Part shown: one piece after another, positions 2,625-58,847 of the stretch
Position numbering within the stretch: the stretch's first letter is position 1
Layout: every line of letters starts with the position of its first letter
Assembly (NCBI GenBank): GCA_001938485.1
Contig: MQRK01194125.1
Span: 5,661-69,660 of the forward strand
Reading direction: 5' to 3'
Origin: Girardia tigrina
Lineage: Eukaryota
Length of the DNA: 64,000 nucleotides
The notes under the pieces: generated by a model
What the model saw: the letters and a program-made list of their open reading frames with translations, nothing else
Told to the model about the DNA's origin: nothing
The model's database searches: none
Position numbers and translations under genes: made by a program

Positions 2625-2850
2625 TTGTTTCCCCGGTATCGTGGATATCCCGTGGGGCGGATACGGAACCATGGTGCAGATGACCAAGAATTCATCAACA
2701 TTTTTGGAATCTTAACATCATCATAATTATGAATTATCGAAAATAATAATAAATTACTGTTATTTGGATTCATTCCATCGGGATCAATGAGATAAGTATA
2801 ATTTACTGTATAACCTCTTTTTATCCATTCATTGCAAGAGGGTTCTAGGT
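2625..2850 (-). CDS. Exons 28-29: start of fibrinogen-like repeat 3 (gene continues beyond window)
   Basis: EPSCNEWIKRGYTVNYTYLIDPDGMNPNN|NSKNVDEFLVICTMVPYPPHGISTIPGKQ; 47-nt intron at 2711-2757. Confidence 0.85.
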
Positions 2851-5800
2851 CTAAAGAAAAAAAGGCGTTTTTATAAAATTTCAAAAAAATCAACATTTTT
2901 TTTGTTCTTCTTTTATTTATCCTAATATTTACGGATATCAACCAACTTTATCAGAATTAACTTCAACAAAAACAGAAAAGTTGTATAAACTTGTTGAACA
3001 ACTGTAATAATACAATAAATCAGTAAAAAACAGAGACTGGGAGATTAACTTATGGGTATCATTTTAGACTATCATACAAAGCCTGGTCTTAAATGTAAAA
3101 CAAACTCTTTGCTGGAAAACCTATATGAGTTATGAAACAGTGAATTAATATATCCTGTTTTAAAGAAACACTTATGTAAATTAACCACAAATAGAAATTT
3201 ATAATTAACAAAATGTTTGTGCCAAAATAGCTGGTGTTAAGAGTACTGACACAATTACTATGCAGACATTTATTAATATCATATTTAGAGTCATGGCAAC
3301 TGTCAGAGGTTCTTTCTCCGTTTATCATCTTTCTAATTAGTGTTGTTTCTGAATTTTTAATAATGATTATTCGAACGAATTTCGTAATATTTCAATAATA
3401 TTTATTATTCTTTTAACTTTAAAATTTTTGATGCAAAAATATTTCTGGGCGACAATCGAATTTATTGAACATTTTTTTAAATAAGTCAATAAATTTTGAA
3501 AATCATATTTTTTGTATCAATTAATTTACTTAATTTAGAGATCCAAATGTCTACTGTCAGTTACAGTAGCCTTAAACTTATACAGCTATCTATTTGTTCT
3601 AATGGTGTTTCAACAAAGAATTAAACAAGGAATATATCCTTACGTCCTTTTCATAACTTTAAAAACTATCTATCGACAATAACGATTTTTAGTTACCAAA
3701 AAATTATCTATTCCTTTAAAACAACGGTATATTCATCATAAATTCATTCATAAAACGACCTTTCAACGACGGAAATGATTAGATTCTTTGAAACTTTACG
3801 AAAAAAATCTTTTTAAGATCTTCCAAAATAATGAAGATCTATAAAATCTTCCTACACAATACAGCAGAAAATCAGCTTTTTCTTCGATTACCCTTGTTCA
3901 TAAACATGTCTGAATTATCACACATATTTTGGTGCCCCTGGTCAAGAACACATGAAACAAATCAGGAAGATCTGGAAATAAGGAGTATTGATACCACATG
4001 ATCTTACCGAAGATAACAAAAACGAGCGGTAGAACACGTGTGACATTCATAAAAAATATAGTGCTGAACCTTTTTGTAAACGGTTTGTGACTGGAGAGTA
4101 AAAATTTGGTCGTATATGACAAGAGAAAAAAATGGTTGTCCAAATATCTAGTGCTTCATAAAACAACAAAAAAAATTGTTTAGCTTTTAAAAAGTAATGT
4201 TATGTGTTTTGTCGGAGCAGAAAGGAATAATTTATTATGAAACTCTTAAACCTTGAAAACTGTCACTTTAGATCTATACTGTGAGTAGATGGGTCGCTTG
4301 AATGAAAACATCATCTAAAAAACAGAGGCGGACTAGTCTTACAAAATGACAACGCTTAACACCATTAGGCAAATGAGACCCAAAAATAATTTTCTGAGCT
4401 CGGATGGAAAGTCTTACCTCATCTGCCTAATTTCTCCGTCGGGTTATCATTTATTTACTTCAATGGAAGATTATTAAAAGTAAAAGGATTTTTCGACGGA
4501 AATGAGGTAAAAGGATTTTTTCGCTGGCGAACAAGTAGCAAAAGATTATAGAAAAGTAGGTGAATTATATTTTATAAATAAAATTTGGTTTTTTCCATTC
4601 TTAATACATATTATATATATATATATTTATTATATATTTTATTATATATTTATATATTTATTATATTAGCTTACTTTCTAAGTATGTATCCATGTAATTT
4701 AGAAACCTATTTTTGAAGGCTTTTAACTCAATCAATTTTCTCCAATCTTTGCACACTTACTCATTCTCGATGACAATAAATGATTATGTGAAAATTTGAT
4801 CAGAAAAAGCTTTTTAAGATACCAAAATGAAAGAAACGGAAATTTCGGAGTTCGAGAACAATAATTATTGAAATAGATCTACTGATAAATTATAAGTATT
4901 ATATATTATTTTTATTGTGTTTTTTTTAATTATTTTTTTAATTAAAACTTTTTTGGCAAAGTAGAATTATGTCTACATAAAGAATGAATATAAAAAAATG
5001 ATTTTTTGATTTACTAGTTTAATATAAGAAAAACTCTGAAACTTTCGATATTTCAAATATTTTAACCTTCAATAATATTTTAATTCAATTAATATTTTAA
5101 TCTTCAAGATATATAAAAACTGCTTTTCTTAATACAATTCTTCTTCTGATCGCCGAACAAAGGTGACAACGTTCTTTCTCAGCTTCTGTCCGGATTTTTA
5201 TATATTCCTCTTTTTAAATGCATTTCAAGATGCCAGAAGACATCGAAGTGGCTCAGAACTAAGGGAGGTGACTAAAGAACTGAAATCCATTTTTTGATGA
5301 CTTTGATTATTTGTAAGATCATAGAGCACCTACATTCTCACTTAAGATTATTACATCTCAATTTCGCCACCACTTTTCAGTAGTATGAATACCTGATTCA
5401 AACATCTTTTTCTGCAACATTTATACAGGGGACTCCTTATCGTATAAAAAAATTGCCAAAACAAATGATCTTTTCCTGGGATCGTTTTCCAGATAGATGA
5501 CTTTATGGTCAGATTTCTACTTTCTTGGGTTCTGGAAGTAGAAAGAGAAAGTGGCGTCTTATAAAGGCGTCTTATGAATTAAATTGGATTCATTCTTAAA
5601 GAATCTGGATAATTTCCTGTTTGCACTAAAGTCAATTTTTAAAAATTTCCGATTAAAAAGATTGATAAAAATTGATAGAAAAAATATAAAATTTTAGTGT
5701 AAATAAAGATAAATTTTGCGTAACATGTATCTTGTGTTCCTACAATAGTGCATCGAAGACATTCCCTTCTGGTTTCTTGAAGCCAATTTAGAATTTTTAA

Positions 5801-8800
5801 AATCTTTTATTGGTGTTAACCAAGACTTCGATTTTTAACAGGTTTCCCTATCAATTGACAAACATTTAAAACTTACTCCGTTTCAATATTCCATATTCCA
5901 ATTTTCCCTTAAAGATCTGGGAAAAGTTCTCTTCAAAAAACCAAAACATAAATCAAAAATATTTTTATAGAACAGGTTGATAGGTCTTTTTAAATAAAAA
6001 AATCCTTAAAGATTGTAAAATCCGTAAAAGGATAATAGTTATATTGAAGCTTTAAAATAGAAGTTTAAATTTAAAACCTACAAAATGCCGCTGGACCACA
6101 AATTAGGGGTCCCACTGTAAAATTGGAAGGATTTGGTGACTTATTCAAATCCGAAATGCATTTAATTGGAAGGTCTTCTTTTTTACGAATAAATCCAAAA
6201 TCTGATCCCGCATTTTTACCATCACAATTACAACTTGCAGTGGGGTCGGTGCATGAGTTGTACACTCCACACGCGCATTTTCCATTCGACCCACTACCGA
6301 AATAATCGAGATTTTTCCCGGAAAGTGTTTGAAGAAACGCCTTATTGTCCAATAATGTGGCCCCCTCCTGTTTAATTAACATTTTTATATCATTATTATT
6401 GTAGAATAGAAGTTATCAATAATGCAAAATAGAATAAAACTCACTTGACAGTCATATTTCACTTCTTGAGTACATGATCCAGAATCATCTATCAATTTTC
6501 GAATGGCAGGATCACTAGCTGGATAAGAAAAACATGTCTGAGGATCCTTATTTGGAGATGTAGGATTTTTTAATGGGCCCGGAAAACTTGAGTAATATCC
6601 ATTTGGAATACTTCCTGGAATTCTGTGGACAATCGTGAAAAAAAGTTAACCAAATTTTTTATGAAGTGTAATAAATGGAATAACGCTTACTTATTATGAG
6701 GAAGTTTTGTAACTGCAAATGATTTTGTTGTCACATCACACAAAGCTCTAATGGGCTCCAAAGGACCATCTCCATCGACATCTAACCAGACTACTCCATT
6801 TTTGATCAGTCCATAATTATCTTTTGCATCTTGACAATTCTTTGGAAAATCTAGATCATTACAAGTAATGATTTATATTAATTATGTTGATATGTACTGA
6901 AAGGTCGAGGTCCGCAAGCGAGAGGACCAATCGTGATAGTTCCAGATAAATAGTAGCCGTTCCCTCCAGTCAAAATTCCAGTCAAAGGCAGTAAAGATTT
7001 ATCAATTATTCGCCCGGTATCATAGCCAGGGCTGTGGTAATCTCCATCGCAAAAGCATGCTTTTTCTGGTGACTCGCATATGTTTATTTCTCCACATCCG
7101 CACTGTCAAATAATAATGATAATAAAAATAATAATCTTAATAATCTTGGAAATATGAATAATATAAATGATGTGAATATAATATTAATAATATTAATAAT
7201 TTTCAGAGCTATTGTTCATTTGGCTCTTTACGTTATTCAGAGAATGTGCATCTCCATATTTCTTTATTCCTCACTTCCCTCGTAACATCTATGATACAGA
7301 AATCATCATACCATGCTAATCTATTGAATCGGTATACTGATCCATCCTGGTTTATCAGCTAAACTCCACCCGCAAATATATTAAGTCTTGTCTGCTTTAC
7401 CACTTACCAAAGACAATGTTAAAAAATAAGGTCCCACTACGCACCCCTCTCTGCCATATATATTTATTTTAGATTTACTTTCTCCAAATTTCTCGGGAAA
7501 ATTCTTTATTAGATTGATTAAATTTCAGAAAATCTCAGTCTTTTAAAACATTACCGGAGAATCTCTATAGAAACTGTGAAAAGCTTTCTCCAGACCGATA
7601 TAAATTACGTGTACTTCCTGATCTCTGTATCTGCCTACTTTCTGAATCTCACAAAAAATGAAAATTTTTCACATCGTTCCTCTTCTTGATATAATAATAA
7701 ATTGTTATTTATCTATTTTCCGTTATAGGTATTTGAATGTTTACAACAATTCTTGAAGGACTTTACCCATAAATTCAAATAGAAAATTCTACGGAAATTG
7801 TTAGCATTAATCGGCCGCCTTTCCCATTGAATAGAGTCGTAACTCGCGCTGACTTTCATTCTCATGTACTTATAATTTTATGTAAACCAAATCTATTTCC
7901 AAACTACTTAGTTGATAATTGATCCATGTATAAAACTGTGCTGTTGGTTTCTTTGAATTTAACATGAAGGCGATGACTTCGTAGTCCGTTGACAAAATAA
8001 AGGAATAACCATAAGTTTTTTCCTCGGTATGTAATATCTTTTTTCCTAAGGTCCAATTGAATGCGAGCCATATGCAATTACCTTTTCCCTTTTTAATTCT
8101 GCTAGAATACTATCAACACTGGCATCTTAATTCAAAATAAACTTATTGAAGTTCAGAACGTTAAGATCCCGGCTTTCATAAGGGCTTTTTTTCATATTGT
8201 GAAAAGCTTCTTCACATGAGTATGCCCATGTTAGTTAATTTTTTAACCCTTCTAATACAACAATGCCAACTGTGGAATAACCACTTTATGAATCGTTTAT
8301 AGTAGTTACAGATTCCCAGAAAATGTCTCAAATTCTTCATGCAGTTTAGTATTTGAAATGGGAAATGAGTCCCCATAATCCTCTCGAATGCATTGATTAA
8401 AATCATTTCTGACCTAGTCATAAAATTATTGAAAATTATTCCTCTAAGATGTGGCCATTATTTTTTAAATTTGAGTCAAAATTTAAAATAAAAAAACTGA
8501 AAAGTAAAAGATTAAAGTCCATTTTATAAAAATCTTAAAACATTTTCCTCAAAATTTACAGCCATAAACGATTAAAATATTGAGAACAACGAATAATTAA
8601 ATACCAAAATTATTTTAAACTAACGAAACTAGAATAATTTATTAAAAAAAAACAAATTTAAAAAGAAAATTCATAAGAAAATGAAATAAATAAAGTATGT
8701 TCTAATGTGCTAAGATAATCATGATAGCCGGACAACTTTACAATCATTAGTTACGATCAGTGCTCGAAGTGGGAAAAAATAAGTGCCGGTATGCGGAAAC

Positions 8801-11800
8801 CGGCCATGCAGCGATTTTGCTCCTCCGCAGCCCAACGCCAACACCCTGACGTCAACTCCCACTCCCCCTCCCCGATTTTTTAATATATTTAAAAAAAACA
8901 GTGGTTTCTTTTCATTTCCGCTCACCCAAAATTGTATACAACCCCCACACATTAACGAACCCTGAGGGAAACCAAAAACCATTCTCCATTTAAATCTTAT
9001 TGACTACACAATAAAGATATTCACCAGCGTGTGTAATGGTAACTATAGTAACTACAGATCTCACTAAGTGTCCAGTCAACAATAAACTGTCTAGAGTTGA
9101 CATATTTTGTAAATGCAATCGACACCAACGTCGGCATCCTTTCCACTACCCCGATGTATCTACTACTCTATCTACAGCGCACACACTCGTGTGTAAGGTT
9201 TGTGTATATGTGAGAGAGATAGCGGTGGCAGGGGGCGATAGAAAGAGAGAGTAAGACATTATGGTTAGTCGTTAGTGCCAGTGACACTCCTGCTTACATT
9301 ATGCTGTGTGCGTTTGTTTGTGTGAGGCATCATATACAGCAGTTGAGGTGAGACGGAAGCGTAGCCTTAGGAAAAACAAGTGCCGGTATGAGCCGGTATT
9401 CCACTTAAAAATCATACTGCCTTAAAATCAAATAAGTGCCGGTATGTCATACCGCCTCGAAAACAAGTGGCGGTATGGCATACCGGCACATCCCGGCTCA
9501 CTTCGAGCCCTGGTTACGATTCGAAATCGTTTATCGGATATTAGAAAATTATAATTCGATATTTTAATCTGGTTCTGATATCTGGATTTAATGACATTCA
9601 ATTTTATGACGGATATCAAAAATATTTCTGATATTCAGAATTTTGACCTTTTGTGATTTTGACTCTTGGAGATTTTAGCTTCAGAATCAAAATCTATGTC
9701 GTACAATTTCCATTCTTTGTTAATTATCATTCAATTAAGGGTCAAATATAGAATTTGTAGGCATGATTACTGTGAGAAGTGATTGCAACATCAATATCTG
9801 AATTCATTTTTTAACACCAAAATTTATTAATAACAATAATTCACATATTTAAACAAATTTTTCTGTTAATTTAATTATTTCGCCATGAATTAATCTATTA
9901 AATTCTTTTCGATTCAATTTCTAAAATCTTGCAAATTTATTAAATAATTTTCACATTAAAACTAAAAATTTATTTTAAAATTTATTTAAAATTGTTTCAT
10001 AACTTCTATTAAAATATATAAATTATTATGACTGTAAAAATATTTTTATTTATAAATAAATATTTAATATTTAATGGTTTTCTTATCATTTATAATTTTA
10101 AGATATTTAATAAATACATTAAAAAGATATTTTTTATTTTTAAATAGATATTTAATTTTTTATGATTTTCTTTTATTATATCATTTTTATTTTAAAATAT
10201 TTAATAAGCATATTAACATTAAATATTATACATTTTAAATTAAAAAATAATAAATTATTCTGACGAGATGAAAATTTAAATTAACCCCTCATAATTACAA
10301 TAAATTCAAATAGTTTTAATTTGACAATGACTTAACATTTTGTTGCACAGTTTTTTGTTTGATTGCTACACTTTTTGGCTATTGAACACATTAATAAAAA
10401 TTGATTGAAATTATCAATAACTTGTTTTAATAATCAGTATTTACAAAATGAAAAAAACGAAATTCGATCTATTATGAATCTCCAGTTCCTGCGTGGTACC
10501 TCATCTCCAGAATCCATACAAAAAATCGAAAGTGTATTTAGATAGAATCCTACTACACTGCAAACAGTCTTAAATTGGTAGAGGAAATTCGTGAAAAGTA
10601 ACTTTAACCTCAATAATGAGTCTCCAAAAAATTCAGATAAACAATGACGAACTGAATTTAACCATGGATTCGGATCAATCACAAACTGCTCATATATATG
10701 AAACGTTCAGTAAGTTGGGTTGACACGAATGAAGTACCAAAATACAGTCCGAAGCAAATAAATCATCAAAGGAAGCTAATGGTAAGTTTTTGGTGGTCTT
10801 TCACAATTCTTTTATGACATCATGAAACATGATTTGTCGATAACAGCAGATGTCTATTGTAATCAATTAGATTCTAATTGATTTTCATATGTTGACTGCT
10901 ATCTTGTTCCATGACAATGTCAAACCATATACTGGACTTAAGACTATGACTAAACCCCAGGAACTTGATTTGGAAGTTGTGCATCATCTTCAATACTCAC
11001 AAGATCTAGATCCAACTGACTACCATTTTTTCCTCCATTTGAACAACTTTTTGATAAGAAAAAATTCAATGCCAAAAATTAAATAAAAATGGGCTTCTAG
11101 GAATTTATAGATTCTCGCCCACCAAAGTTTTAATCTAGGGGTCTCTAGGATATTCAAATAATATTCTAATGACATTTTGAGGCCATAGTTACTAGCTGTA
11201 CTATATATAAGTAATTTTCTGTTAAAAATATTTTTTATAAAATAAAAAAGTTTTGTTTCATTTTTTTAGTTTAAATTTGATGTTTTACGTATTTCTTTCC
11301 AAAGACGTGTAATAAAATATAAATAATTTATAAAAAATATTTGTTAGAAATTCAAGCTTTGCCAACATTTTCCTTAGTTTCGGCAAACATTAAATCCTTT
11401 CTTTCATCAACCATAATTGAGGACAAATTCCCTGAAACAGTCAATTAGGAATAATTTTACAATGGATAAAAATGATTATTTTTTTATTTATACAAGAAAA
11501 AATTGTCTCGTTTCTCAATTATATTTCATGAATAGCGGAACAATCGCAGATGCTGCATTACTTTATTTAAGTATGTCTGTCTGTTTGGAATGTCTCTTTT
11601 CACATCGCTCAAGCGTCTTAAAATACGACGAAAGGAAAAGATAAGTGTTAACACAAAGAAAACAAAGAAGAGGATGTTGAAAGTCTTCGTTGAATTAGTT
11701 TGTCTTACGATTGAAATTTAATAAAATTATTATGATTTTTTTATTATTAACAATTTATTTATACAAATGATTTTTAAAACATTTTTATTATTTTCGATTA

Positions 11801-14800
11801 ATGCTTGTTTATAAACTTTAGTGTCTTTTTGAGAAGAAAGAAAAAAGCAAAAAGTAATGAACTTTTAAAAAATGTTTTAGTTTATTTTTAAGGTATTCCA
11901 TACCATAGCGATAATACCTCTTGAAACATTGGAATCATTTTAAAACAGAGGGTGGTAACAACGGGCTTGAAGGTTTCATGTGGCTGTTTTAAAAAGAATT
12001 GCGAACTTACTACATCATTATGCGTGCTGTACATTATTAATATCAACTCCAGGCCTCTCAAAATGTCTTCAACAATAGCTTTAACCTCTTTCTTCCTATC
12101 AAGTAGGCTTAAATTTGATAAAAAGATAAAAATCCTTTGTAGCCAAGTCCAGACTATAGAGTTAATTAGAAATTTCTTCAAACCCGCATTCATCCTCAGG
12201 AAACTTAGTAACAACAGCTGTTTGAACTAAGGCCTTGTCATTGAGGAGACAAACATCATTTCCAAAATTTCCCGAAGTCTTTTCATCATAATGGTGTCAT
12301 GCAAACAGTGTTGTAAATCCATATAGTACTCCCCATATACTATTGTATTTTTTCAACTAATGAAATCTAAAAATCTTGTCCTCCTTATCTTATTAGTTGC
12401 CTTCGGGATCTTGGAATTTTGAAAAGGAACCTCATATAGTTTTCTCAATTCCGACTTTGAAAAAGAATCATAGTAAAAGTTTCAAAGTCTCCTGAGTAAA
12501 GAGTAAAGTTATATTAATCCAAAGATTCTTGGCAGTCTGTATTTCTTTTGCAATTATTGATTTTTATGCACCCGATAATAAGCTAGTAATAGGCGCTCAT
12601 AGAATCCTGAATGAACTTCATTGTAACGTTGTTGTGATTGATGAAACGTAGTTTTACGTGAACTAATGCCTGCAAAAGAAGTCTCTCATGCATATGAAGA
12701 ATCTGAAGGAGACAGACAAAAACAAGCTGGCAAATCATTGCAAATAAGAAATGACATATAATACTGGCTTTGAACTTTCGTGGGACTCATTATTTTGAAG
12801 TGGTGGGGCATGTAGAACCATCTACACCCACAGATACTTAAAATTCTTAGACAAAATGAAGCAAATTCGACGTCATGAAAATCTTCTCATAATGCAGGAC
12901 TTTTACAACTATCCTACTCTCCATATATGAACCTGATGAATTGCTATTTATTCAAGAACATGGAATCCAAGCTGAGGGAACAAACGTTTACTTCCATTGA
13001 ACAAGTGTAAATGTTTTTAACTATGTTCTTGGCTGAGCGAATCCGTTACAAACTAGGTCATGAGATGGACCGCCAACAACATGATCTCTAAAACATTACT
13101 TTACGTGGTAGTGAACGTTACAATAAAGTCACGCAGAACTTATTGATATTCAAAGCCATTATTCTTTCTGTATCTGCTGGTTGGTGCATTATTTTATTAT
13201 ATAGTTCATTATATTAAAATTTATTTCATATATTTTTATTTATCCATACTAGTCGTTAAAAGATTTCACTGAAACATACGTTCTCTCTTACAATTACTAT
13301 TGCAAAAATAATATTCAATATTTTGACATCCTTACTCTTTAATAATATACGAACTCAAATAGATATGAATATCTTTTATCTTTTTGTCAAAGCAAGCATT
13401 AGAATATGTATTATTATTAGAATATGTATATTAAAGTGATTAATTATTCTAAATTGTATTTTTTGTTTATGGTTGAAAAATAACTATAATAAAACAATTA
13501 TTAGTGTTGAAAGCATCGACACAATTACTTTGTAAACATTTATTAATATTACATTTAGAGTCATCAAAACTTTTGGGAGTTCCTTCACCATTGTTGTTTC
13601 TGAATTTTTAATAATGATTATTCGAAAAAATTTCATAAATTTTCAATAACATTTATTATTATTTTAACTGTAATATATTTCATAAAATTATAAAAAATAT
13701 TTAAACGAATTTTAAAATTATTCCAATCTATAAAATGTCTTTAATTGATACATTAAAAATTTTTATTTTAATTTTTGAGAAATATTACTTATATTATAAA
13801 TTACTCTGTATTATTACATTTTAAATATAAATTTTATCAGATTATTAAATTTTCATTAATTTTAAAAATATAAATTCTGTTCGAATGATCAGTTATCGCA
13901 AATACAATAAAGTATACATGTTTTCAGTACACCCAAATAACCACACCACATTCATACACAATTTAAAATACTCCTCACAATTAGTAAAATAAAAAGTTGT
14001 GATACTCTAATATTTACTTGCATATAATCTGTCACAAACGCTGTATATACTAATATAAAGCAACAGTCAAAGGTTGACCCAGTTCTCGGCCCGGTTATTG
14101 TATAATAGCAATTTAGAAATGCATAAATTTGTTGATTTTATAACATTTTTAATGATAATTTTTTATTAATAATTAAAATGTATTCTCTCATGTATTAAAT
14201 TAATGTTGTTTGTATTTAGATATTTAATATAGACCTAATAGAAATCTTAAGGTAGGACTTCACTAATTAATAAACCATGCATCGGACACTAATGAATAGC
14301 TCAAGAAAAATAAAGTACCTTGTTTTCTGTTGTACTACTGCCCCATTTTTTATGTATTTTTCCATTGATATCAATATAATTAGTCGTAGTCAATAGTTCT
14401 AAAAAGCCATCACATTGAAATCTGAACAAAATTGTATATGAAGATTTATAATAAAATAAATTATAAGATGGGAAACTACTCCATGTCTTGGTAGCAGAAC
14501 TTTGAAGAGGCAACTATGGGTAACACGTAGGTCAACGGAAATTCGTAGGTGATTGTTCTATTTTCCGTAAGTGGTTTCGGATTAACAATTTTTTTCGGAG
14601 AAGTGTTGTCGTGATTAATGATTGTTATTCCAAGATTTGGTTTCATAACACACGTCACCTATACAAGGGTCAACATTAGATTAAACGATTTTTTAATTCA
14701 CTTACATCAATGAGTGGAAGCGGTCCTGTTCCATCAGGATCAATGCTATATACTCCTGATGGGGTACCTGGATTTTGTAGTAAATACTCGTGACAATTTA

Positions 14801-17800
14801 TGGCAGTTACTAAATTATTTTTGTTAAAAAAACTACTCAACCATAAATTCTATCTTACATTGACAATTTTTTCCGTCACCCGTAAATCCGCTATTACATT
14901 TGCATGAGTAACTGCCAACTAGGTTGGTGCAAGTGGCGTTTGTATTACATTTGTTCAAAACAGGATTGTTGCATTCGTTAATGTCCGTGCAGCTTAATTT
15001 TCCGTCACCTTCAAATCCGAGATTGCAAGAACATAAATTTTTATAACATTTTCCATTTTTGGCACAATCGGCATCTCCAAGACAAAATAGTTTATCTGTA
15101 ACATAATATGGTTAAAAGACGTTTGTGAAGCAGCTTAGAAACAAAACATCTTACTTTGACATGTGCCATTGTCTAATCTTACGTAGTTGTCCAAACAACT
15201 ACAATTGTAACTTCCGATGGTATCTGTACAAACTTCATTGATTCCACAAGTATTGGGGTTGTTCAAACATTCATTTATATCTAATTTGTAATATTTGATA
15301 TATTAAACTTTTAAATCAAGCATTCCCTTACTGGTACAAGTCATTAGACCGTCTCCTTTAAATCCAGCTTTACACTGACATTGACCCATACGACACAGTC
15401 CATTTGTATTGCAATCTTTATCCCCTGTGCATGGAGTATTTGCTGTTCACCAAGTAAAATAAACTATTTCTTTTATAAACTAAAATTTACTATATTCACA
15501 AATTCCTGGATACTTCGAACTACAACTTTTTTCTGCCCAAGGTAGCTGGTTTGATTTGGAACCATCAACAATGAAACAATTAGCTGATCCAGTTAATCCC
15601 GGTTCCTTACTGTTCCAATTCGTATATTCGAATGTTGAATTGTCTGACCAGAAAAACGTTGAAGGTTTACTTAGATTTTCTTGGAGACCTAAAAATAATA
15701 TTAAAAAATTACTAGTTTTTTAGTTGTTAACATAAATATTAGACACGTGTTTGTAAAAAATTTTTAATTTGTATCATTCTCGATTTATATTTTGAGTCTT
15801 TGTAACTGTTAGTTATATGTTGTTGTAAATCGGTTATTTTACTTGTAAACAACTCATAACAGAAATTCATATTGTGAATAAATTATTGTGTCTTTAAATT
15901 CGTGGGCCTCCAATCTCTGTAATGGTATTGAGCCTCTGGCTCTTTAGAGAGTCCACCCAAACTAAAGTCCTTAAGGGCCCCCCGATAGGCCTCCTACGGG
16001 GTCAGTGGCCTTCCACCTCTGAGCAGTCGGCTTGCCAGTAACGAACGACGAACCATGGAACTTGGTACCATGGCCGTACGGTGGACGCGTAACAACCGCG
16101 AAATGGGCACTTGAATTGTCCTCTTGCAGTCTTGTAATCGGCTGGCAGTCGGTATTGTAGGTGCGTCTCATCGGCATCGTCGTTCGACTGTATCCTCGAC
16201 ATACTCACAGTTGCGTCCGGCAACTGAGGATTGGATTGGTTTGATGTCGGCTCTTCCTCGTTCTCTTCTTCCAAGTTTTCTTCTCTCTGGGGGTTGGATG
16301 TTGGATGTCTTTAAATTCGTAAGAAATTAGTCACCAATAGACCAATTGTAAGCAGCAAACTATGTATTAAGTTGTTGAAAAAGGAATGCAAGTTTTTGAT
16401 TCTAAACTAAAAAATGTAACTCAGCACAGAAAAAACTATTAATCCAAAAAAAATCTATCAGAATCAAGACATTTTTACCAAAGAGAAACAAGTTTATTGA
16501 TTCCTCTAGCGTAGAACTCCTGCGTTTTTGGTGCGATGAAAGCGTTAAAGGCGTCTTTGGCGTCATCTTGGTTTTTGAAGCATTTATCCTTAATGAATTT
16601 GTCTATTTTATATTTATTTTGTATTTAGACACCTCATCAGAGGGCAATTCGGTTTTTAAGAAAGGCTATTCGAAAGTTGACTCATTTTAAATTGAACATG
16701 CAAAATTTGATCGTGATCTAAGATGTGTTTTCTTTTACACTGTCGACGCAATGTAATCAAATCTAATAGCCGCCGATATCATTAATACATTGACATAATA
16801 GCAGCCTTAGCCGGCCAGCAGATTTAATACCATTATTATTTCAATATCTACCGCTGCGGACGGTGTCAAAGAAAGCTCAGCTTTTTGATAATAATTTTAT
16901 ACGTGGTGCGCTCAATAGGTAGTGTGCCTAACATAGAAATAATATTCTGATTCCAATGAATTATTTTCATAACAAGCAAGTTATAAAGGTAATATTTGTG
17001 ATATTTGTTTTAATCTATTATTTTTGTTTAGGTTAGAGAACGCATAAATTCGAAAATGTCATTGGAAAACGTCCAATATCGAAGCGTTATTCGTTTCTTG
17101 TTAATGAAAGGGAAAATCCGGGAAGAAATATTCGTATATTCGAATATATAAACAGTTTAGTTCTGTTTATGGCGAAGAGAGTCCATCCATATCTACTGTC
17201 AAACGATGGTTCAACCATTTTCGATATGGTCGAACATTTGTTTCTGATGAAGAAAAGTCAGGCAGGCCACGTGAAATTGGCGAAGAAATAGCGAAAAATC
17301 GTGAAGTGTGAGCGACGAATCACTATCAGAAAACTGACAATGCGATTAAATGTCAGCAGAGGTACCATACAATCACTGCTTACGGAAACTGGAATTAGAA
17401 AATTGTGTTCACGCTTCGTGCCACAGTTTTTAACAGCAGACATGAAGGAACGGCGATTGATGTGCTGCCAGGAAAACTTAAACCTCTATGAATGTATTGG
17501 AGACCGCTTCTTACAGAATATTATGACAATGGATGAAACACCACTTGTCATTTATGTCCCAGAATCAAGACGTGAGTCTCATGAGTGGAAGTGCCAGGGG
17601 AAGAGTGTTCGAAGAAGATGCGATCATCAACCTCTCACAAAAAAGCTCTCATGCTCCTCACTTTTTGGGATGCAAATGGAATGATCCTTGCTGATTTTGC
17701 GGAAGCTGGTGTTCGTATCAACAGTGAATACTACTCCCGGCTCGAGCTTCAGGTAAAAAAGCTGAGAAGGAAGAGCAGAGTTTGTGAGTTATATTATTTG

Positions 17801-20800
17801 CACGACAATGCCCCCATCCACACAAGTGAGCTGTCAATGTCATCAATTGAGGGTTGTGGCCTCACCATGCTCTCTTACCCTCCATACAGCCCGGTTCTGG
17901 CGCCTTCCGATTATCATCTTTTCATCCACCTCAAACGAGCTCTCAGGGGTCAACATTTTGCTACGAAAAAAGACTTGAAGGATGCAGTCTCAAATTTCTT
18001 GGCTCAACAGCCACCGAAATTCTTTGAAAAAGCCTTTCTGGACCTTGTTGTGCCCTGGAAAAAATGTGTTGGTGTAAATGGACATTTCTTTGAGAAATGA
18101 TACCTTTATAACTTGCTTGTTATGAAAAATAAATTTCATTGGCATCGGATTATTATTTTTATGTTAGGCTCAGTACTTATTGAGCGCACCACGTAAGATG
18201 AAACGATACAAAAATTTAATATTCATAGAATCTCATTATTTATCCAGATAAAAATTTGTAAAAAATAAAATTTAGATAAAACTCAATAATTTCTAATCGT
18301 CATTATTTTTAATTTTCAAAGTTTTTTGTTTTCTAATAAATATTTTGAAAATTTCCTGTCTTTTCTTAACAATTTTCCAGTTTTACTTCGGTGAACAATC
18401 AATGTCGCAGTATCATAAATTATGTATAATTATATTCCTGAGAAAAGGAAGGGGAAGTTGAGGGGCAGTAATAATTTTTGGTAGACTTGAAAAATATTTA
18501 ATTGTTTTTAGAAATTTGACTCTGAACCTAACCTCATATTGACCATTATATCCTTGTTCGTTTATGCCGGAGTCTCGTTGAACAGAACCCCGGGGCAAAA
18601 CGAGGTTTACTTGTACATTCAATTCGAAAGGTTGAGTTTATGAAACGGCTTTTAAATATTAAACAACCTCTCTTTTCGTTGAAGATAATGAAGATAACGA
18701 TATAGAAATAAAAATTAAACGATCCTAACAGAGAATAAAATCTGAGATCCTGGATCAAGTCGTACAACAAATATCAAAATTATGTTTAAAATTTCTAATT
18801 TTTAACAGTGATAAACGGATTTAAATCACAAAAAAATATTTGAACAACTTTGCGTGTTACAAATAAAGGCTAACGTGACTGAAGTTTTCAACAGGACTGG
18901 CCAGGTCAGTTTAGCTTAAGATCACTCATTAATAGGATAAAGGACTCTTCTCTTTCTAATAATGAGATTTGCTCTCAACTTTTGTCTCGGCTTTCCATTT
19001 TTCGAAGTCTCATTCTGCGTGAAATAATATGATTTCTTACATTAAATTCATTTTTTGTATTTTATTGGAGTTGAATAACATTAATTTTTTGGTATACGAT
19101 ATGGTATAAGATACAGAAAGACTTCTTCGAAGTTTTAGGTTAAAATTCATATAAAATTTGTTCTGAAAGATCTAGATTACTTGATGTTTCGAGTCAACCA
19201 TAAATGTTAAGGCACAAATCGTGACGTGTATTTGCTTGTACTTGTTTGCGTTACATATATACATGTTCTAGTGTTGTGCTATAGATTAATATTTTGTAAA
19301 TTTATGTTTTACAAAATCAATAAATAAACGAATAACAATTTAAAGAATTATTTGTAACTTACACATAAGAGATTATTATTGTGAAAGTCTACAAATCATA
19401 CATAAAACCGAATTCCTGGTTTTCTATTTCTGTTAATTTCAGGTTAATACAATTCAATTGCCACTATTTGTTCATTGGGTTTGATAATTCTATTTGCAAA
19501 GTAATACAGTGAAAGCCGCTTAATAGGACCAGTAAAAATCTATTAATGGGAACACTCATGAAACTGTTTGACCCTTCAAACAACATGAAAGTCATGAAAA
19601 ACGTGTTTTTAGCGTAGGTCATACACCCACCCCAATCAACATACACATACACACGTAACAAAGAAGCAGGTCTTGACTGAATTTGTATTTACTGTATTTG
19701 TTCTTATCTCTTTAGCTGCAGAGAGTACCTGCTACATTTGTAGCACACAGCAAGAGGAAAAGTGTCCTGCAAGCAAACGTACAGTTAGTGGCGGTAGCCC
19801 CATACATTTACCATCCCAGGTACGTATGTATGTGTGTGTCGCCTAACTCGACATCAATCTTGCTAGAGCACAATGGGGAGGGTTGCAGACTGTCATTCAT
19901 TTTAAAATACAGTAAAGTAGTACAGAACTGTATTGCCCAATACTGTACATAGTTAAAGCGTTTAACGTACTGTTTATACGAAGAGTGTGTACTTCAGAGC
20001 TCTCAAACTGTTTAGACCATCGCAATCGGTTTGTAGGCAGTTTTAAACCGATGGCGACATTTAAAAACGCGCAAAATGTTGTTACAACTCGAAAAGTGTA
20101 CTTTGTCAAAAAATAACACCACTTCGCTTAATGGGACTAGTCGGTTAATAGGACCAGTTGGGCTTGGGACAAATGTGGTCCTATTAAGCGGCTTACACTG
20201 TAATACCTTTTTTCTTACTGTTCTGTGTTGTATTTATTTCAAAAGATTTTGTTTACCATAGTTTTTTTTTGCTATTTTTATTTATTAAAGAGGTTCACTG
20301 ATCGAACCAAAAATAATTTAAGTCAGCCTTTTTAACAATAAACATAGATCATTCTTTACTCTTACATAAAACGAAGTATGATAAAACTCACCAATCCAAT
20401 AGCTATTCCATATGTTTTTATTCCTTAAATAACTTTCAAGAAACATTTGTTCTCCGTAAGTAGCGATTGATATTAAATCGCCACCAGCTGAAGAACAAGC
20501 CTTTTGCGAAGCAGGTACCGAATCTTCTGGCACCGGTTTATAACATTTTCCATTGAAATATTCCGAAGTTGTCGGACATCGATAAAAGACTGAAGATAAT
20601 AATTATACAATTAAATAATCAAAAATATTAATATTATCAAAAATAAACGTAATTATAAACAATTAATTTTCTTAAGATCGGAACAAAGTCAACAGAAAAA
20701 TATCAAACAAAAGTTGTCATTAAAAACAAAAATAAAAGAAAAATTCTCGGCCAAAAATATAAAAGAACGAAAGATTTATAAATGAATCATCGGACAAGAA

Positions 20801-23800
20801 AAAGAGTGATTATTTTTGGCGAAAGAATGTTTTTGTTAATTAGAATCTAGAAAGAAAAAGAACCGGAAACGTTTTAGAAACATTATATCATAAGTCTACA
20901 CTTGTCTAAATTTTAATTGAATTTATATAAGATTCAAAGGAAGAAAGCGTCTTGTTGACGATTGTCAAGCAAAAATTGTTTTGTTTTTAGTTGTGTCGTA
21001 AGCAATTTACGAATTCCATTATGAAGGAGTGCGTTTCCTTAATGCATTTTTCAATTATAAGCGATGTTATACTCGTTGTCTGAGTGAGATAATTAAGATT
21101 CGTTGGGAACGAAGCGGGGATAACGGATTAACAACGAAACAGAAAATGCAGATATGTTTCCACAGAAAATAATCTCGTTATTTATATTTATTTCGGTTTC
21201 AATTTTCCCCTACTGTGGATGGAAAATGTCTTTCATGATTGAGAAAAAATTTGTTTCGTTTTATAATTAATTAATGATTTTGATTATTTCAACAGGAAGC
21301 TGGAATTAAAAGTTGAGATGAAGGATGTCGTTAAAGAAGAATGATGTTTCAGACGAGGATGATGCATCACTCCATGAAGCATATCACCACTGAGCCTTGA
21401 CCTTCTTTTTATTCTTATTTAAATAAAATTTATTTATTTTCTAAATAAAAAAGATATTTACAAAATATTAAAGTATAAAAGTAATTATCATTATATACAC
21501 TTAAATACATACTAAAAGAAGGATTTTCCCTCCTATTGTGTCAGGTCTCATAGGATATATACAAAAAGATAGTAAAAAAGAAAGATTTTTGTCAAACCGG
21601 TATCGGAAATCTATATTCTGATTTGTATTTACTTTTATATCTTGATACTAAAATTTTAAGCATATTAAATACATAACAATTAATGGACAAGCAATTGCAA
21701 CGTAAATATACCGAGCGATGCCGATAAATTAGGACAAATAAATTACTCAAACAAAACATCCATTTTTAAGAAGGACTGAGTGCGAAAAATATTACTAACT
21801 TTAAAATCCTCTATCTTCAAAACCGTATTTTGATTGAAAAAATACCGACTGTTTTGATAAATATGTGTAATTCAAAATAATTTTAGGAAGCTGAGAAAGA
21901 TTATTTATTTTTTTTAATAAATTCTGCGAGCTATTCCGGAATACCTGCCATTAGACTTGCAATTGTAGTTTCTGTAACGTTTTTGACTGTATTATTCCAC
22001 TTGTTCCGAAAATCTGCAATTGTCTGTGCCCTCTTGTTTGTCGTCTTTAACTGCCTTTTTAATAGAGCCCAATATCTTTCGATTGGGCGAAGCTCTGGAC
22101 AATTTTGGTGGGTTTGCTTCTCTTTGCACCAAATCGACGTTATTGTCTTCGTACAACTTCTTGGCTGCCTTACCATAGTGGCACGTTGCCAAATCCGGTC
22201 AAAAGAAAGTAAAACGTCCGTGCTGACTTATGAATGGTAATAAACACTTTTGCAGCACTCCTTCACATAGACTTCTGTGTTTATTTTGCCAGATGTGACA
22301 AAGCATTTACTCCTTTTCCCGCATCCACATATAGTCTGCCAAACAAGAAATTTTTTAGGAAACTTAAATATTTTCTTCCATCTAAATTTTTCTTCAACTT
22401 CGCCTCTCTTAGTTTCAGAATAAAATTCTTGTCCGGGTAGCTGGGAAAACTCACAGAGCAGATAAGTCTCATCATCCATATTGAAACATTTTTTCTTCGC
22501 AAGAAAACCAGATTTCAACTTACTGGCTCGATAAAGTTTTAGTTGGTGTTCCGATCTGGTACTGTTTGAACTTTATACGTTTTTAAACCCACAGAATGTT
22601 TAATTTTCCGAACTGTTTTCTCGCTACAATTTGCCTTTACCGCCACTTTTTTCGATTTGATAGACGAGGATTTCTCTCTAACAGCGCCTTTACTGCCTTC
22701 ACATTCTGTGTACACGACAAAACCCTTTCTTCTTCCGGAACCGATTTTTCTAAGAACGTTCAAATTCTCATTTAAGTTTTTAATAACGTTAGAAACTGTT
22801 TTCTGACAAACCTTTGCCTTTCTGGCAATTGTTTTCCGACTTGATTGTGGATTTTCTTGAAATAAACGAATAATTAATTCGCGACTTCATATTTCTGACA
22901 TATTCATGAAAAATGAAATTTAAAAATGAATACTAAAAGGAATTTTATTTTGATTTATTCATACAACAGCCTACTTGATTAGATTTTTGTAATTTGTGAA
23001 TTTATGTTGGTGTTAGAGATTTAAAGTTAGTAATATTTTCGCACTCAGTCCTTATGTATGTACAGGGTGACACAGATTAATTCGGTTAAACTGTATTACA
23101 GTGTGACAAGTGATATTTGTAGGATAATGTTTACTTTGGCTGTTAGTTGTCTAAAATTTGTTCAGAGACATAAAATATAAACATGAATATTAAATAATTA
23201 AGGGCATTCTGCTTGAAATGCTAATCTATCTTTGTAGTATTTGTACTTTTGACAAAGGAATATGATATGCGAGCAGACATTATAATTGATCTTCTAGATG
23301 AAAGAATATCTATAGAAATCGAGGTTTTTTCAGGCTTCCAAAGAGCTTTGTTTTTTTAGTAAAAAAAGAGGTATGCTGAGAACCAGGAAAGGTTTTGTGC
23401 CTCAAAACACCATGAGGAACAACAGAGTTGGTACTGCACTTTCCTGAAAGATAAGTCAAAATTGCTTCCATTCAAGGTGAATGGAATTTTCCAAACCTGT
23501 GAAAAGTAATCTAAGAATGAAATACTATGCTTGAAAACAGCCTTTTTTTCGGATTTTTATTAAAATTATTTAGAAGTATAAAATAAAAATTGAAGACAAA
23601 GTAAAAAATATTTTGTAAAAGAAATTGTGTTAAAAAAATGGCGTTTTTTCTAAAAAAAACATCATTTGTTGTTTTTTGTTGATTGTTTCTTATAAACGAC
23701 CTTGAGATTTAATTTTTTTATATTTTGTATTTCTCTAAGACTTTGCATTTTTTATATTTATTTATAAAACAATTGAGATATGGCTGGTGGAATCGTGAGG

Positions 23801-26800
23801 GGTAAATTGATAATGGATGACAAACGGATGCTGGAATAACGACTTTAGCTGGCCATTTTGTGTGTGCAATCGATTTTTATACGCATTTCAATGAGAATGA
23901 GTTTATTTCCTTAAAAAAGGATAAACTTCTGAAGCTAAAGTTCGAAGATCTATTACCTAGGTAAAATAGTATACCTTAAAAAATTAAAAAAAATGTCTTT
24001 GCTTTCCTGATAAAATTTTTGAAAAAGGTTTTAAACTGTTAAGCCTCACTTATAAGATTTGATCATGCCAAGAATCGTCTAAGAAATAAAATTAAATTTA
24101 TTCTAACAACTGTGACTCCGAATAATTTAAATTATATTATAAATGTATTTTTACAGGTACTATTATCAAATCTTAATGGTTTTGCAAACAAAATAAATAA
24201 AAACAAAATACTCACCATTTTGTGGTTTTTCACATAGAAATCCATCGGCTTGTTCATTACAATCGGCGGAAATCCATTTCCCGGTTGATTGTATTTGGAA
24301 GCATTCGATATCCGGCGACATTCCAAGAACACTACGATTAGAGGTAGCATAGTTGGTGAATGATACGTCCTGGATATTTCTCCATTGAACTGTTGATGAT
24401 CTTTGCAGCAAATTTTTATTCAGTCCAAACCAATACTTTCCAGATAAGAGTTTTAAAAGTCTGTAGAATAGATCTTTCGATAAAAAGATATTATAAATAA
24501 TTTACCGATTAAAAATGGTTTTAGAAGTATCATTTGATGGAATTATGACTAAATCTCCTCCGTATTTCGCACATTCTATTGCTGAATTTACGACATTTTT
24601 CGGTTGAGGAAATAATGCAACACACTTTCCTCCAATTTCCTTCCAACCTTCCGCACATTTTCGAGGTGACGCCGCTTTAAATGAATGTTTTATTAATCAT
24701 TAATAATGTAATGACAAAATTATTTATTAATTTATTTAATTATTTATTATTTATTTCTTAAAAATCTTTTCAGTTAAACAATTTGATAGATGACAACGAG
24801 TAAATGGTTCTAGGACCTTTCCACACAGGACGCTTTTGCACCGGGACTTAACGAATTTCGATAAATATCGAAGTTTAAACTTTGTTTGATTGAAAATTTT
24901 GTCTCGATATTACGAAGTCAGTGTAGATACATCATATATATCACATGAAAAAAATCGAAAAAAATGATTTAACATACAAAAAATATTTAGAAATGATTTA
25001 TACGACTCTGTCGTTAATGATATGAGTCACATTAATGTTATAAACAGTTTGTTTAAAAAGATTGACTTTTTGGTTGGAAAATTCAAATGTCTATGAATAA
25101 AACTTTATAATGGCGTTGTTCGATGTTCTTTTATATAAACGCGGTGGTTCAACCCGGGAACCAAAAAATAAATCTCCTCCTATTTTAGAAGTTGAGATCG
25201 GGTTCAGAGAAGTTAACGAGTCATTATGTATGCCCGATACTTCGCCTCGTTTAGATATGGATCCTGAAACAATACCATACTCACGGTTTCAATTACGAAG
25301 ACACAGTAATTACTTTAAAAGACAATTCAGAACGAACAAGTTTTATTTTATATTTCTGACCTTTACCAAAATGTATTTTATTTTATAAAGCTTGTAGAAA
25401 GTCATTTGGAAAAGACTGTTGGTACATGATTTGAGAACCACTAAATTGGTTCGTTTAAATCAGGATCTCATAACATTCAATTTTGAAACATTAATATATT
25501 AAAAAAATATTTTACGGAATTTGCAAATGGCGGGATAGTTTTCACTGCAGTCCACACTCATGAATTTATATTTTTCGGAGGAACCGAAAGGTAGAATGAC
25601 CATACAAGATAAACCAGCTTTTGGATGACCAGTGGCCCAATTCTGGAAGGACACCAAGGAGAAGTCGATTGGCATATACGTTTCTTAAAAAAGGATTTAT
25701 AAAGGGATACCTTAGAAAAAAACTTTACCTTTGAAAGCCAAAGCCGAGTATCCGACATAAAGTGAAATATTTTTACCGAAGATTTCCAACTGTTCCGAAA
25801 TAAAGTTATGTGACATTATTGAGGCAAAAGTAGCTAAATGACCGCCCTGGTTGCCACAGATTTCTTCGTTTTTTGTTTGATTGTTTGGAACAGTTAAAAT
25901 TCGGTAACAGTATCCTTCATATGACCAACTATTTTGTGGACAAGGGTCTAAATAATTTTTATTAAAATATAATAATTTAATATTATTTAAAACGACTTAC
26001 AAACAAATTAAAACGTATTTTTGTCAATTAAATTTTAATTTAAGTGATTATTGTTGAAGTAATAATTATTACTTTAACATTAATTAAATTATTTATTCAT
26101 TGATTTAATAATTAAACTGTTAAAATACAAAAAAATTAATGCACGCAATTTGCAAAAAAAATTAATTAAATTTATTTAAATAAAAAATGTTTTACCAGTT
26201 CTTTTAAAAAAACAAAAATAAATAAATTTTAATAGAAAACAAAATATCATTAAATAAATTCGATAAATAATTTATTTAAATAAAATTATAAATAATTAAC
26301 ATAATTTTTAGTTATGATAATTCAGTAAATTAAAAAGTAATATTTTAATGATAATTATAATTATTCGAACAGATTATTGAAATAATATATATATNNNNNN
26401 NNNNNNNNNNNNNNNNNNNNNNNNNNNNNNNNNNNNNNNNNNNNNNNNNNNNNNNNNNNNNNNNNNNNNNNNNNNNNNNNNNNNNNNNNNNNNNNNNNNN
26501 NNNNNNNNNNNNNNNNNNNNNNNNNNNNNNNNNNNNNNNNNNNNNNNNNNNNNNNNNNNNNNNNNNNNNNNNNNNNNNNNNNNNNNNNNNNNNNNNNNNN
26601 NNNNNNNNNNNNNNNNNNNNNNNNNNNNNNNNNNNNNNNNNNNNNNNNNNNNNNNNNNNNNNNNNNNNNNNNNNNNNNNNNNNNNNNNNNNNNNNNNNNN
26701 NNNNNNNNNNNNNNNNNNNNNNNNNNNNNNNNNNNNNNNNNNNNNNNNNNNNNNNNNNNNNNNNNNNNNAAATCGAAACATGTCCAATAGTTGTATTAAA

Positions 26801-57746: not shown

Positions 57747-58847
57747 ATGGAAAATCAAAATGAGCATATTCGTCATGTTTTGTTGCATTATTTTCGCAAA
57801 GGGAAAACCGCTTTTCAAGCTCATAAGAAGACACGTTTTTATATGGTAGTGACTCCTTAAAACTTCGACAGTGTCAATACTGGTTTTCTAAATTTCCTTC
57901 TGAAAAATTTCATCTGAAAGATGCACCACGCTCCGGTCGACCAGTTGAAGTTGATGGTGACAAAATAACAGCACTGATCAAATCTAATCCACATATGACG
58001 ACAATAGAAGTTGCAGAGACTCTGGAAATATCAAAATCAAGTGTTGGAAGTCATTTAAAGAAACTTGGATTCGTCAGTAAACTCGATATGTGGTTACCAC
58101 ATGAACTGAAAGAAATTCATTTGACGAAACGTATAGACATTTGCGATTCCCTTTTGAAGCGAGTACAAAGTGATCTATTTTTGAAGCACTTGATTACGGG
58201 TGACGAAAAATGGATTGTTTACAACAATGTGGAACGCCAATGATCATGGACAAAACGTGGTGAGCCTGCCAAAACGATCCAAAAAGCAGAAATTCACCGA
58301 AAGAAGGTTATACTTTCCGTCTGGTGGGATTTTAAAGAAATTGTGTTTTTTGAACTCCTTCCTAGGAATGAAACCATCAATTCAGACAGATATTGTGGTC
58401 AGCTGGAGAAATTGGCTCATTCAATTCAACAGGAACGTCCTGAATTGGCAAATCGAAAAGGAGTTGTAATTCAGCATGATAACGCAAGACCGCATACAAG
58501 TTTGACCACTCGCCAGAAACTCTTATCACTGGGTTGGGAGGTTTTGCCGCACCCCCCGTATTCTTCAGACTTGGCCCCATCGGATTTTCACTTATTTGAT
58601 CACTGCAGAATTCCTTAAACAGAAAAACATTCGCCAGTGATGATGACATCAAATTTTTCCTAGACGGCTTTTTTGCTGACAAAGGCAAAGGTTTTTATGA
58701 ATCAGGAATAATGAAGCTACCGGAAAGGTGACATAAAGTGATTGAAAATAATGGACAGTATATCGTGTAAAAATATTTGTGCATCCATGTCATTTTTTGA
58801 TAATAAATATTTTAGTAAAAAACGCAATGACTTTTTGGCCAACTCAA
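57747..58847 (+). mobile_element. mariner, mellifera-subfamily-like, inactivated; 5' TIR not seen
   Basis: MENQNEHIRHVLLHYFRKGK, RSGRP, WLPHEL, TGDEKW, HDNARPH, YSSDLAPSDFHLF; 3' TIR ...gactttttggccaactcaa followed by TA. Confidence 0.9.

Follow-up and report, generated by a model that had tools for sequence, protein, structure and literature searches.

The window considered here, a stretch of 64,000 nucleotides (nt) from Girardia tigrina (assembly GCA_001938485.1, contig MQRK01194125.1, positions 5,661 to 69,660 of the forward strand), carries on its minus strand part of a gene that encodes tandem copies of the domain known as fibrinogen-like in Caspr/CNTNAP/neurexin IV proteins. The repeat region consists of nine exons running from 14809 to 2625, whose spliced product of 465 amino acids (aa) is free of stops. 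All eight introns between these exons have GT-AG borders; the array's first exon has its splice acceptor at 14809 and the last visible exon its donor side at 2625, with a GT donor at 2624. Splicing was deduced from signals, reading frame and homology, without transcript support; 13 sequencing runs contain the stretch, none of those listed being RNA. The repeats are as follows:

6898..14809, minus strand: R1, Caspr-type domain with predicted COLFI fold, array position 1, complete, 197 aa; exons 14809-14706, 14658-14480, 14421-14319 and 7102-6898, interrupted by a 7216-nt intron; Caspr-only and position-1 profiles, tree
6082..6850, minus strand: R2, array position 2, complete, 208 aa; exons 6850-6691, 6622-6445 and 6367-6082; Caspr-only and position-2 profiles
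2625..2850, minus strand: R3, array position 3, first 59 aa only; exons 2850-2758 and 2710-2625; position-3 profile

The gene runs past the left edge of the window inside R3. As no additional repeat exon was detected in 1-2624, the count is stated as at least three. All three repeats open with a Cys followed by IDPDG, LDVDG and IDPDG, and both complete repeats close with CxCG..C..C.CDG..D.G.I..K..LP..GPL.C. R1 shares 28% identity with R2 (E 9e-18). Against a Caspr-only profile, built from nine LamG-bearing Caspr-type matches, R1 scored 109 bits, R2 124 bits and the partial R3 13 bits, compared to a best score of 6.9 bits in a control of 400 shuffles (341 scored); chance similarity was rejected. 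A LamG profile found no match among 1056 stop-free window frames (best E 1.9). Hence the proposal of the first-pass annotation, which had read at least three tandem Caspr-type domains with these opening and closing motifs and no laminin-G domain from the letters, is confirmed. In a Pfam scan of single repeat-exon frames, which hold partial domains, the best COLFI value was E 0.019 and Fibrinogen_C was absent. A word-index search of longer proteins with exon R2c scored none of 44 candidates, the ESM Atlas gave no usable match, and PDB sequence searches with an exon or a two-exon profile returned nothing relevant.

Phase-1 introns flank each repeat (14859/14809, 6898/6850, 6082/2850), which makes it duplicable as a module. 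Inside the repeats, introns sit at different places in R1, R2 and R3, with no position common to R1 and R2. As judged from the gene structure, this pattern is that of a shufflable module that was duplicated long ago.

Positional orthology of the repeats

Position-specific profiles with equal repeat borders assigned each window repeat to its own place in an array. R1 scored 170.5 bits with the position-1 profile (next best 114.6), R2 137.3 bits with the position-2 profile (116.6), and the visible part of R3 56.8 bits with the position-3 profile (21.9). The best profile was that of the repeat's own position for 3/3 repeats in the window, 7/7 in the chiton, 6/7 in Macrostomum and 6/6 in Saccoglossus. 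Exactly seven repeats were present in all 11 proteins of the positional set and likewise in Trichoplax P0257. In a FastTree tree of 121 domains, which is unrooted and has long branches, R1 fell inside the position-1 clade (support 97) and R2 was placed with the position-2 rows, though in no clade of strong support; the Caspr copies grouped separately (support 93) with one non-Caspr row within. By sequence, R1, R2 and R3 correspond as positional orthologues to positions 1, 2 and 3 of an old seven-repeat array. Since the positions are in register in the window, molluscs, Macrostomum and Saccoglossus, the register is older than the protostome-deuterostome split, and seven as the number of repeats may go back further still.

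A HMMER search of 1.84 billion representatives yielded 585 matches at E <=0.001, of which the best 150 were examined with the full-length profile. Among these 150 proteins, 60 had no full domain (mostly fragments), 48 had one and 42 had at least two, with at least three full copies in 22 and seven in 6. LamG was present in 16 of the 150, none with more than one full copy of the domain, as the earlier reading of the Caspr domain as a single copy had it; none of the 42 multi-copy proteins contained LamG. Hosts, looked up for 30 of the 150, comprised cnidarians, molluscs, a brachiopod, echinoderms, hemichordates and vertebrates, and partner domains among the relatives included discoidin, SUEL, CUB, SRCR, Xlink, C1q, TSP1, EGF and VWD. 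Judging from these matches, the Caspr-type domain is a common mobile animal module.

Other arrangements were seen in the same set. Uncharacterised vertebrate Xlink-CUB-SRCR proteins end in two tandem copies (P0017 from frog, P0018 from shark), and P0015, P0019, P0020, P0031 and P0132 share their Pfam set, P0132 having a single copy of the domain. Further LamG-free arrays occur in P0034 (Acanthaster), P0012 (Patiria), P0008 (Lingula), P0004 (Rhopilema), P0030 and P0029/P0038, with VWD/SUEL/discoidin (a set like that of Sfp1), EGF spacers, SRCR or C1q as partners. P0034, P0012 and P0004 gave no positional match to the seven-repeat family.

The divergence of R1 and R2 and their lack of a common internal intron position argue against a lineage-specific derivation from Caspr or neurexin IV by detachment of the domain and its recent multiplication into like binding sites, an origin with which the clear homology to the Caspr domain and the phase-1 borders of each repeat would agree. 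Mollusc same-position profiles, moreover, beat the Caspr profile for both complete repeats (170 versus 109 bits for R1, 137 versus 124 bits for R2), the multi-copy proteins are devoid of LamG, and the Caspr copies stand apart in the tree. We consider this derivation largely refuted and give it hardly any credence. The first-pass annotation had supposed that the domain was detached from Caspr and multimerised here. Neither part is supported: the domain is mobile, the window repeats are orthologous by position to an old array, and nothing in the unrooted tree shows an origin in Caspr. The multivalent array that it also suggested is upheld as far as the tandem arrangement goes, but is to be qualified by the low identity of the copies and the separate identity of every position.

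The host gene and its relatives

Together with the repeats, the exons upstream of the array form a 29-exon open model from 55906 to 2625 with AG/GT at all borders, which encodes 1705 aa without a stop in the order WxxW-EGF-VWD-C8-TIL-EGFx4-C-type lectin x3-EGFx4-R1-R2-R3. The upstream features are:

55586..55906, minus strand: WxxW (Mucin2_WxxW), two exons; Pfam PF13330 E 2e-12, frame-compatible splice; Macrostomum P0175 has WxxW before EGF-VWD
37678..37803, minus strand: calcium-binding EGF; Pfam EGF_CA E 9e-12
33236..37553, minus strand: VWD, exons 37553-37294 and 33534-33236; Pfam VWD E 2.5e-13 and 2.9e-13; GDPH and CGxCG motifs
29864..33181, minus strand: C8, TIL, linker and EGF; exons 33181-32907, 30305-30127 and 30071-29864; Pfam C8 E 1e-19, TIL E 2e-8
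26905..29816, minus strand: three more EGFs, two of them calcium-binding; exons 29816-29694, 27250-27128 and 27081-26905; Pfam, exon model
15491..25947, minus strand: three C-type lectins of two exons apiece, 25947-25516, 24674-24216, and 20589-20392 plus 15688-15491; Pfam Lectin_C on four of the five scanned exon frames, collinear with Macrostomum and chiton
14859..15442, minus strand: four EGFs adjoining the array; exons 15442-15332, 15280-15155 and 15095-14859; Pfam

We infer that the WxxW exons are linked to the remaining gene across a 17.8-kb intron. The 1705-aa model contains 7.4% Cys, 23 N-glycosylation sequons, 8% K+R and 15.5% S+T, and it has no PTS tract, KR-rich tract or transmembrane stretch. 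A scan of 55.9-64 kb for a signal-peptide exon gave no candidate. With neither end of the gene visible, the seven repeats, secretion and the tail are taken from relatives.

The closest whole-architecture matches came from a flatworm and a chiton. Macrostomum P0175 and the window model align at 31% over 1499 columns (E 0) with collinear domain order, and the overlapping Macrostomum fragments P0016, P0176 and P0260 extend this order past repeat 7 into VWD, TIL and numerous EGFs. Chiton P0177 aligns at 33% over 1062 columns and has the order lectin x3-EGF-seven repeats. Proteins of bivalves, gastropods, Octopus and Trichoplax show EGFs-seven repeats-EGF-VWD, then C8/TIL and EGFs, with one Babylonia model ending before VWD; mollusc-type relatives are 30-35% identical to the EGF-plus-repeat region of the window. 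The EGF_CA stretches after the VWD block number 37 in Macrostomum P0260 and 45 in Trichoplax P0257.

All nine mollusc-type proteins with natural ends were free of a hydrophobic 19-mer above 1.55 past residue 60, compared to 3.71 and 2.87 for two Caspr proteins used as controls, and a cystine-knot-like pattern of our own matched at all nine ends. The end of Trichoplax P0257 looked similar to these by eye. We infer that repeats 4 to 7 and another VWD block follow beyond the window edge, without LamG or a transmembrane helix.

Most mollusc members begin at a signal peptide that directly precedes the EGFs and have no front VWD block, and upstream of the array there are introns of 3.6, 4.7 and 17.8 kb as well as a run of 398 N, all of which would agree with a model that fuses two genes, the upstream one with VWD and lectins, the other of mollusc type and beginning at the pre-array EGFs. 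Such a fusion is nevertheless quite improbable in our estimation: every junction is a frame-compatible GT-AG, introns of 48-59 nt connect lectin 3 to the EGFs and R1, the whole order is found in one chain in Macrostomum P0175, and its lectin x3-EGF-array part in chiton P0177.

Altogether, the family is old and present in databases but apparently unnamed, and the window gene is a further, ordinary member. A literature search, in a collection without most subscription papers, found neither the seven-repeat family nor a link between Caspr and the COLFI fold described. In the available portions of the main texts of PMC9382459, PMC10475054 and PMC5460417 the family is not described; their supplements may list members.

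The window is AT-rich (GC 22-40% per 2 kb) and contains short introns as well as remnants of transposons. Remains of mariner-type transposase, reverse transcriptase and zinc knuckles, mostly intronic, were noted at 17585-18100 (plus strand), 57827-58618 (plus), 34533-35405 (minus) and 48051-48596 (plus), and other mariner- or Tc1-like pieces were seen by eye at ~10.7-11.1, 22-22.9 and 28.7-29 kb. The N run lies at window ~26390-26790 between EGF and lectin exons; the model stays in frame across it, and an exon may be hidden there. No tRNAs were found in the window.

Predicted fold of the repeats

The fold was examined on structure models of homologues about 29-33% identical to the window protein. 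These were P0039, a single domain 29% identical to R1 (pLDDT 86.5), and P0021 from Littorina, which covers EGFs and repeats 1-3 (pLDDT 79.3, pTM 0.65). The best match of the single domain was the procollagen C-propeptide (COLFI), both with Foldseek (E 1.7e-7, TM 0.51) and in VIA (Z 14.6, 178 aligned, rmsd 4.6; next match Z 7.1), and the repeats of the tandem model matched the same procollagen C-propeptide structures. Sequence identity to COLFI across the fold match amounted to 12-19%. Fibrinogen did not occur among the 50 matches listed by VIA, an absence to which we give no weight, and a match to it was confined to the first ~50-75 positions, with 21-26 bits by sequence and a Foldseek TM of 0.23 (E 2e-3) on the homologue model. 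On these models, the repeats would adopt the COLFI fold and not the fibrinogen fold. Assignment to FReD was rejected as the whole ~220-aa fibrinogen C-terminal fold was not matched. No Caspr ectodomain chain was among the PDB matches listed (60 of 65).

The earlier view of the repeats as fibrinogen-like in fold is thus not borne out by the homologue models, while their assignment to Caspr rather than to FReD or COLFI holds at the level of sequence, where the Caspr domain is by far the better match. This suggests that the label 'fibrinogen-like' of the Caspr/CNTNAP domain fits only its first ~50 residues and that, provided the homologue models are right, the domain as a whole resembles COLFI. 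The COLFI reading of the Caspr domain may, we presume, already stand in CATH or InterPro.

Features of the procollagen trimer, according to the available part of PMC5353611, are a stalk, the inter-chain Cys47-Cys64 bond, Arg42 and Gln62. Equivalents of Cys47/Cys64, Arg42 and Gln62 are missing in all three window repeats, which carry Q, N and R at Cys47 and G, G and K at Cys64; for positions 2-7 of the positional set the comparison at Cys41, Arg42 and Cys47 is uninformative owing to unequal repeat borders. Each domain is preceded by an EGF or the previous repeat, with no triple helix or coiled-coil stalk. A trimer prediction for repeat 1 of P0021 scored 0.00 against a mark of 0.32 with the alignment unused, and counts neither for nor against trimerisation. 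Trimerisation of the procollagen type is improbable for the seven COLFI-fold domains.

All three window repeats and 9/9 Caspr domains have the acidic DxDG loop, as do most of array positions 1-4 and 6; at positions 5 and 7 the loop has degenerated. The equivalents of Asp59 and Asn61 of COLFI, which we take to be calcium ligands, are Asp and Asp in all three window repeats, and that of Asp67 is P, E or D. The loop probably binds calcium in most of the seven domains.

Proposed function and comparison with known systems

The reading that we favour, and hold to be fairly probable, is that the gene encodes a secreted, network-forming mucus, adhesive or apical-matrix glycoprotein with seven different COLFI-fold modules, belonging to an old family without a name. 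The family core would run EGFs - seven Caspr/COLFI-fold domains - EGF - VWD-C8-TIL - EGFs - Kazal - cystine-knot-like end, with a front extension of WxxW-EGF-VWD-C8-TIL-EGFs plus three C-type lectins here and in Macrostomum. In such a protein, the VWD-C8-TIL assemblies and the terminal knot would join chains into a cross-linked network, the EGF runs would serve as calcium-stiffened spacers, and the C-type lectins would bind glycans. The seven COLFI-fold domains would form a head-to-tail, calcium-stabilised string, each with its own surface for protein or glycan partners.

A functional link is provided by the limpet protein P-vulgata_2, which, according to the portions of PMC7333891 available, occurs in each of the three kinds of pedal mucus from limpets and was annotated with vWFD, EGF x11, Kazal x2 and TSP1. 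Its cDNA (PMC7333891 supplement file 2), translated by eye, follows Lottia P0006 and contains seven repeat openings that the authors left unannotated. VWD-C8-TIL, lectin and EGF are, in the parts of PMC9229212 and PMC6410801 available, a recurring kit of invertebrate cohesive proteins. Pfam barely detects the domain, and ~1400 residues of a widespread secreted protein, including this published mucus component, therefore stay blank in annotations.

Several observations weigh against this interpretation. The functional link is to one limpet protein only, and the available portions of PMC7333891 report low expression (FPKM 28) and a software prediction of 'cell membrane' for it, and a specific in situ pattern from 5 of 16 probes, P-vulgata_2 not among them. 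The 3' end of the gene and its signal peptide lie beyond the visible sequence, the Macrostomum models are incomplete and break off in EGFs, and Pfam called a cystine knot in none of the six proteins scanned. Both structure models derive from the homologues and not from the window protein itself. Trichoplax repeats matched best at their own position in just one of seven cases. Furthermore, the window VWD block scored 100 bits against the first Macrostomum block, compared to 199 and 187 bits for Trichoplax and 150 bits for the second Macrostomum block; the front VWD-C8-TIL block (33236-37553) may have arisen by duplication of the rear one.

The long EGF_CA runs of Macrostomum and Trichoplax, the procollagen C-propeptide fold, a PCPE-1 complex among the top Foldseek matches, and the retention of the family in animals with very different secretions would also suit a member of the same family acting internally, as a fibrillin-like fibre component of extracellular matrix or basement membrane whose array may engage collagens or processing factors. 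The secreted foot mucus from which the sole member with protein evidence came, as far as the available source goes, and the typical use of VWD-C8-TIL, lectin and EGF in invertebrate cohesive proteins (PMC9229212, available part) argue against such an internal role, as does the low identity to COLFI; we rate it as rather unlikely.

Within the mucus or adhesive reading, we advance more tentatively that this is an as yet undescribed animal polymer protein of great age, that its seven-domain COLFI-fold string was fixed before the placozoan-bilaterian split, that the roles of the positions have been kept since the bilaterian ancestor, and that the string acts in mucus and adhesives as a rod of ordered modules which, depending on calcium, cross-links or engages collagen. 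If this holds, Caspr would have recruited a single copy of a free, monomeric module with the COLFI fold, and the array would offer a natural system in which to look for the binding partners of that module. Naming the family would provide a conserved candidate for bioadhesion and matrix research that is open to knockdown in flatworms.

Gel-forming mucins carry VWD-C8-TIL assemblies, three of them N-terminal, a PTS domain and a C-terminal cystine knot. The window gene resembles them in one VWD-C8-TIL assembly, with a second in relatives, but has one VWD before the array and no PTS tract in the 1705 aa, the gene ends being unseen. With flatworm adhesion protein 1 (ap1; Mlig-ap1, Tmed-ap1), mucins, FCGBP, zonadhesin and Sfp1 it shares VWD-C8-TIL, calcium-binding EGFs, C-type lectin and ~7% cysteine, whereas no KR-rich or PTS region is found in the window model. 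The ap1 proteins have a single lectin, then VWD-C8-TIL, then 17-19 EGFs, and an array of this kind is undescribed in the available parts of PMC9229212 and PMC6410801. Orthology to ap1 was rejected, as the window order is VWD, four EGFs, three lectins, four EGFs and array.

Likeness to the fibrillar procollagen C-propeptide (PDB 5K31, 4AE2) would extend, on the homologue models, over the whole-domain fold, with equivalents of the base-region Cys41/Cys73 and the acidic loop; in procollagen the domain forms a terminal trimer, whereas the window repeats stand head-to-tail in one chain. Caspr/CNTNAP/neurexin IV proteins share the ~200-aa domain, its cysteine pattern, the DxDG loop and an EGF ahead of the domain. 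Caspr, however, is a transmembrane protein that also has a discoidin domain and holds one copy of the shared domain, placed among LamG domains (PMC12414531, available part), whereas in the window the shared domain is tandem, R1 passing directly into R2 and R2 into R3, and is accompanied by VWD and lectins without LamG. Caspr/neurexin IV membership was rejected because of the tandem domain and the absence of LamG from the window frames; tblastn of four Caspr-type proteins against the window, in which the gene start was not located, matched only the repeat exons and one EGF, and no discoidin.

Closer likenesses lie within the family. P-vulgata_2 (PMC7333891) and Lottia LOTGIDRAFT_230443 (P0006) have EGFx4 followed by seven repeats in register, and further relatives of this limpet type occur in Pecten, Mercenaria, Dreissena, Potamilus, Octopus and Babylonia. 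Unlike the window gene, these mollusc relatives are without the front WxxW/VWD block and the lectins, although the chiton protein does have lectins. The BOX15_Mlig002622 models of Macrostomum lignano (P0175, P0260; UniRef fragments P0016, P0176), while distant in sequence, fragmentary and uncharacterised, are collinear with the window gene in the order WxxW-EGF-VWD-...-EGF-lectin x3-EGF-array, with the repeats in register.

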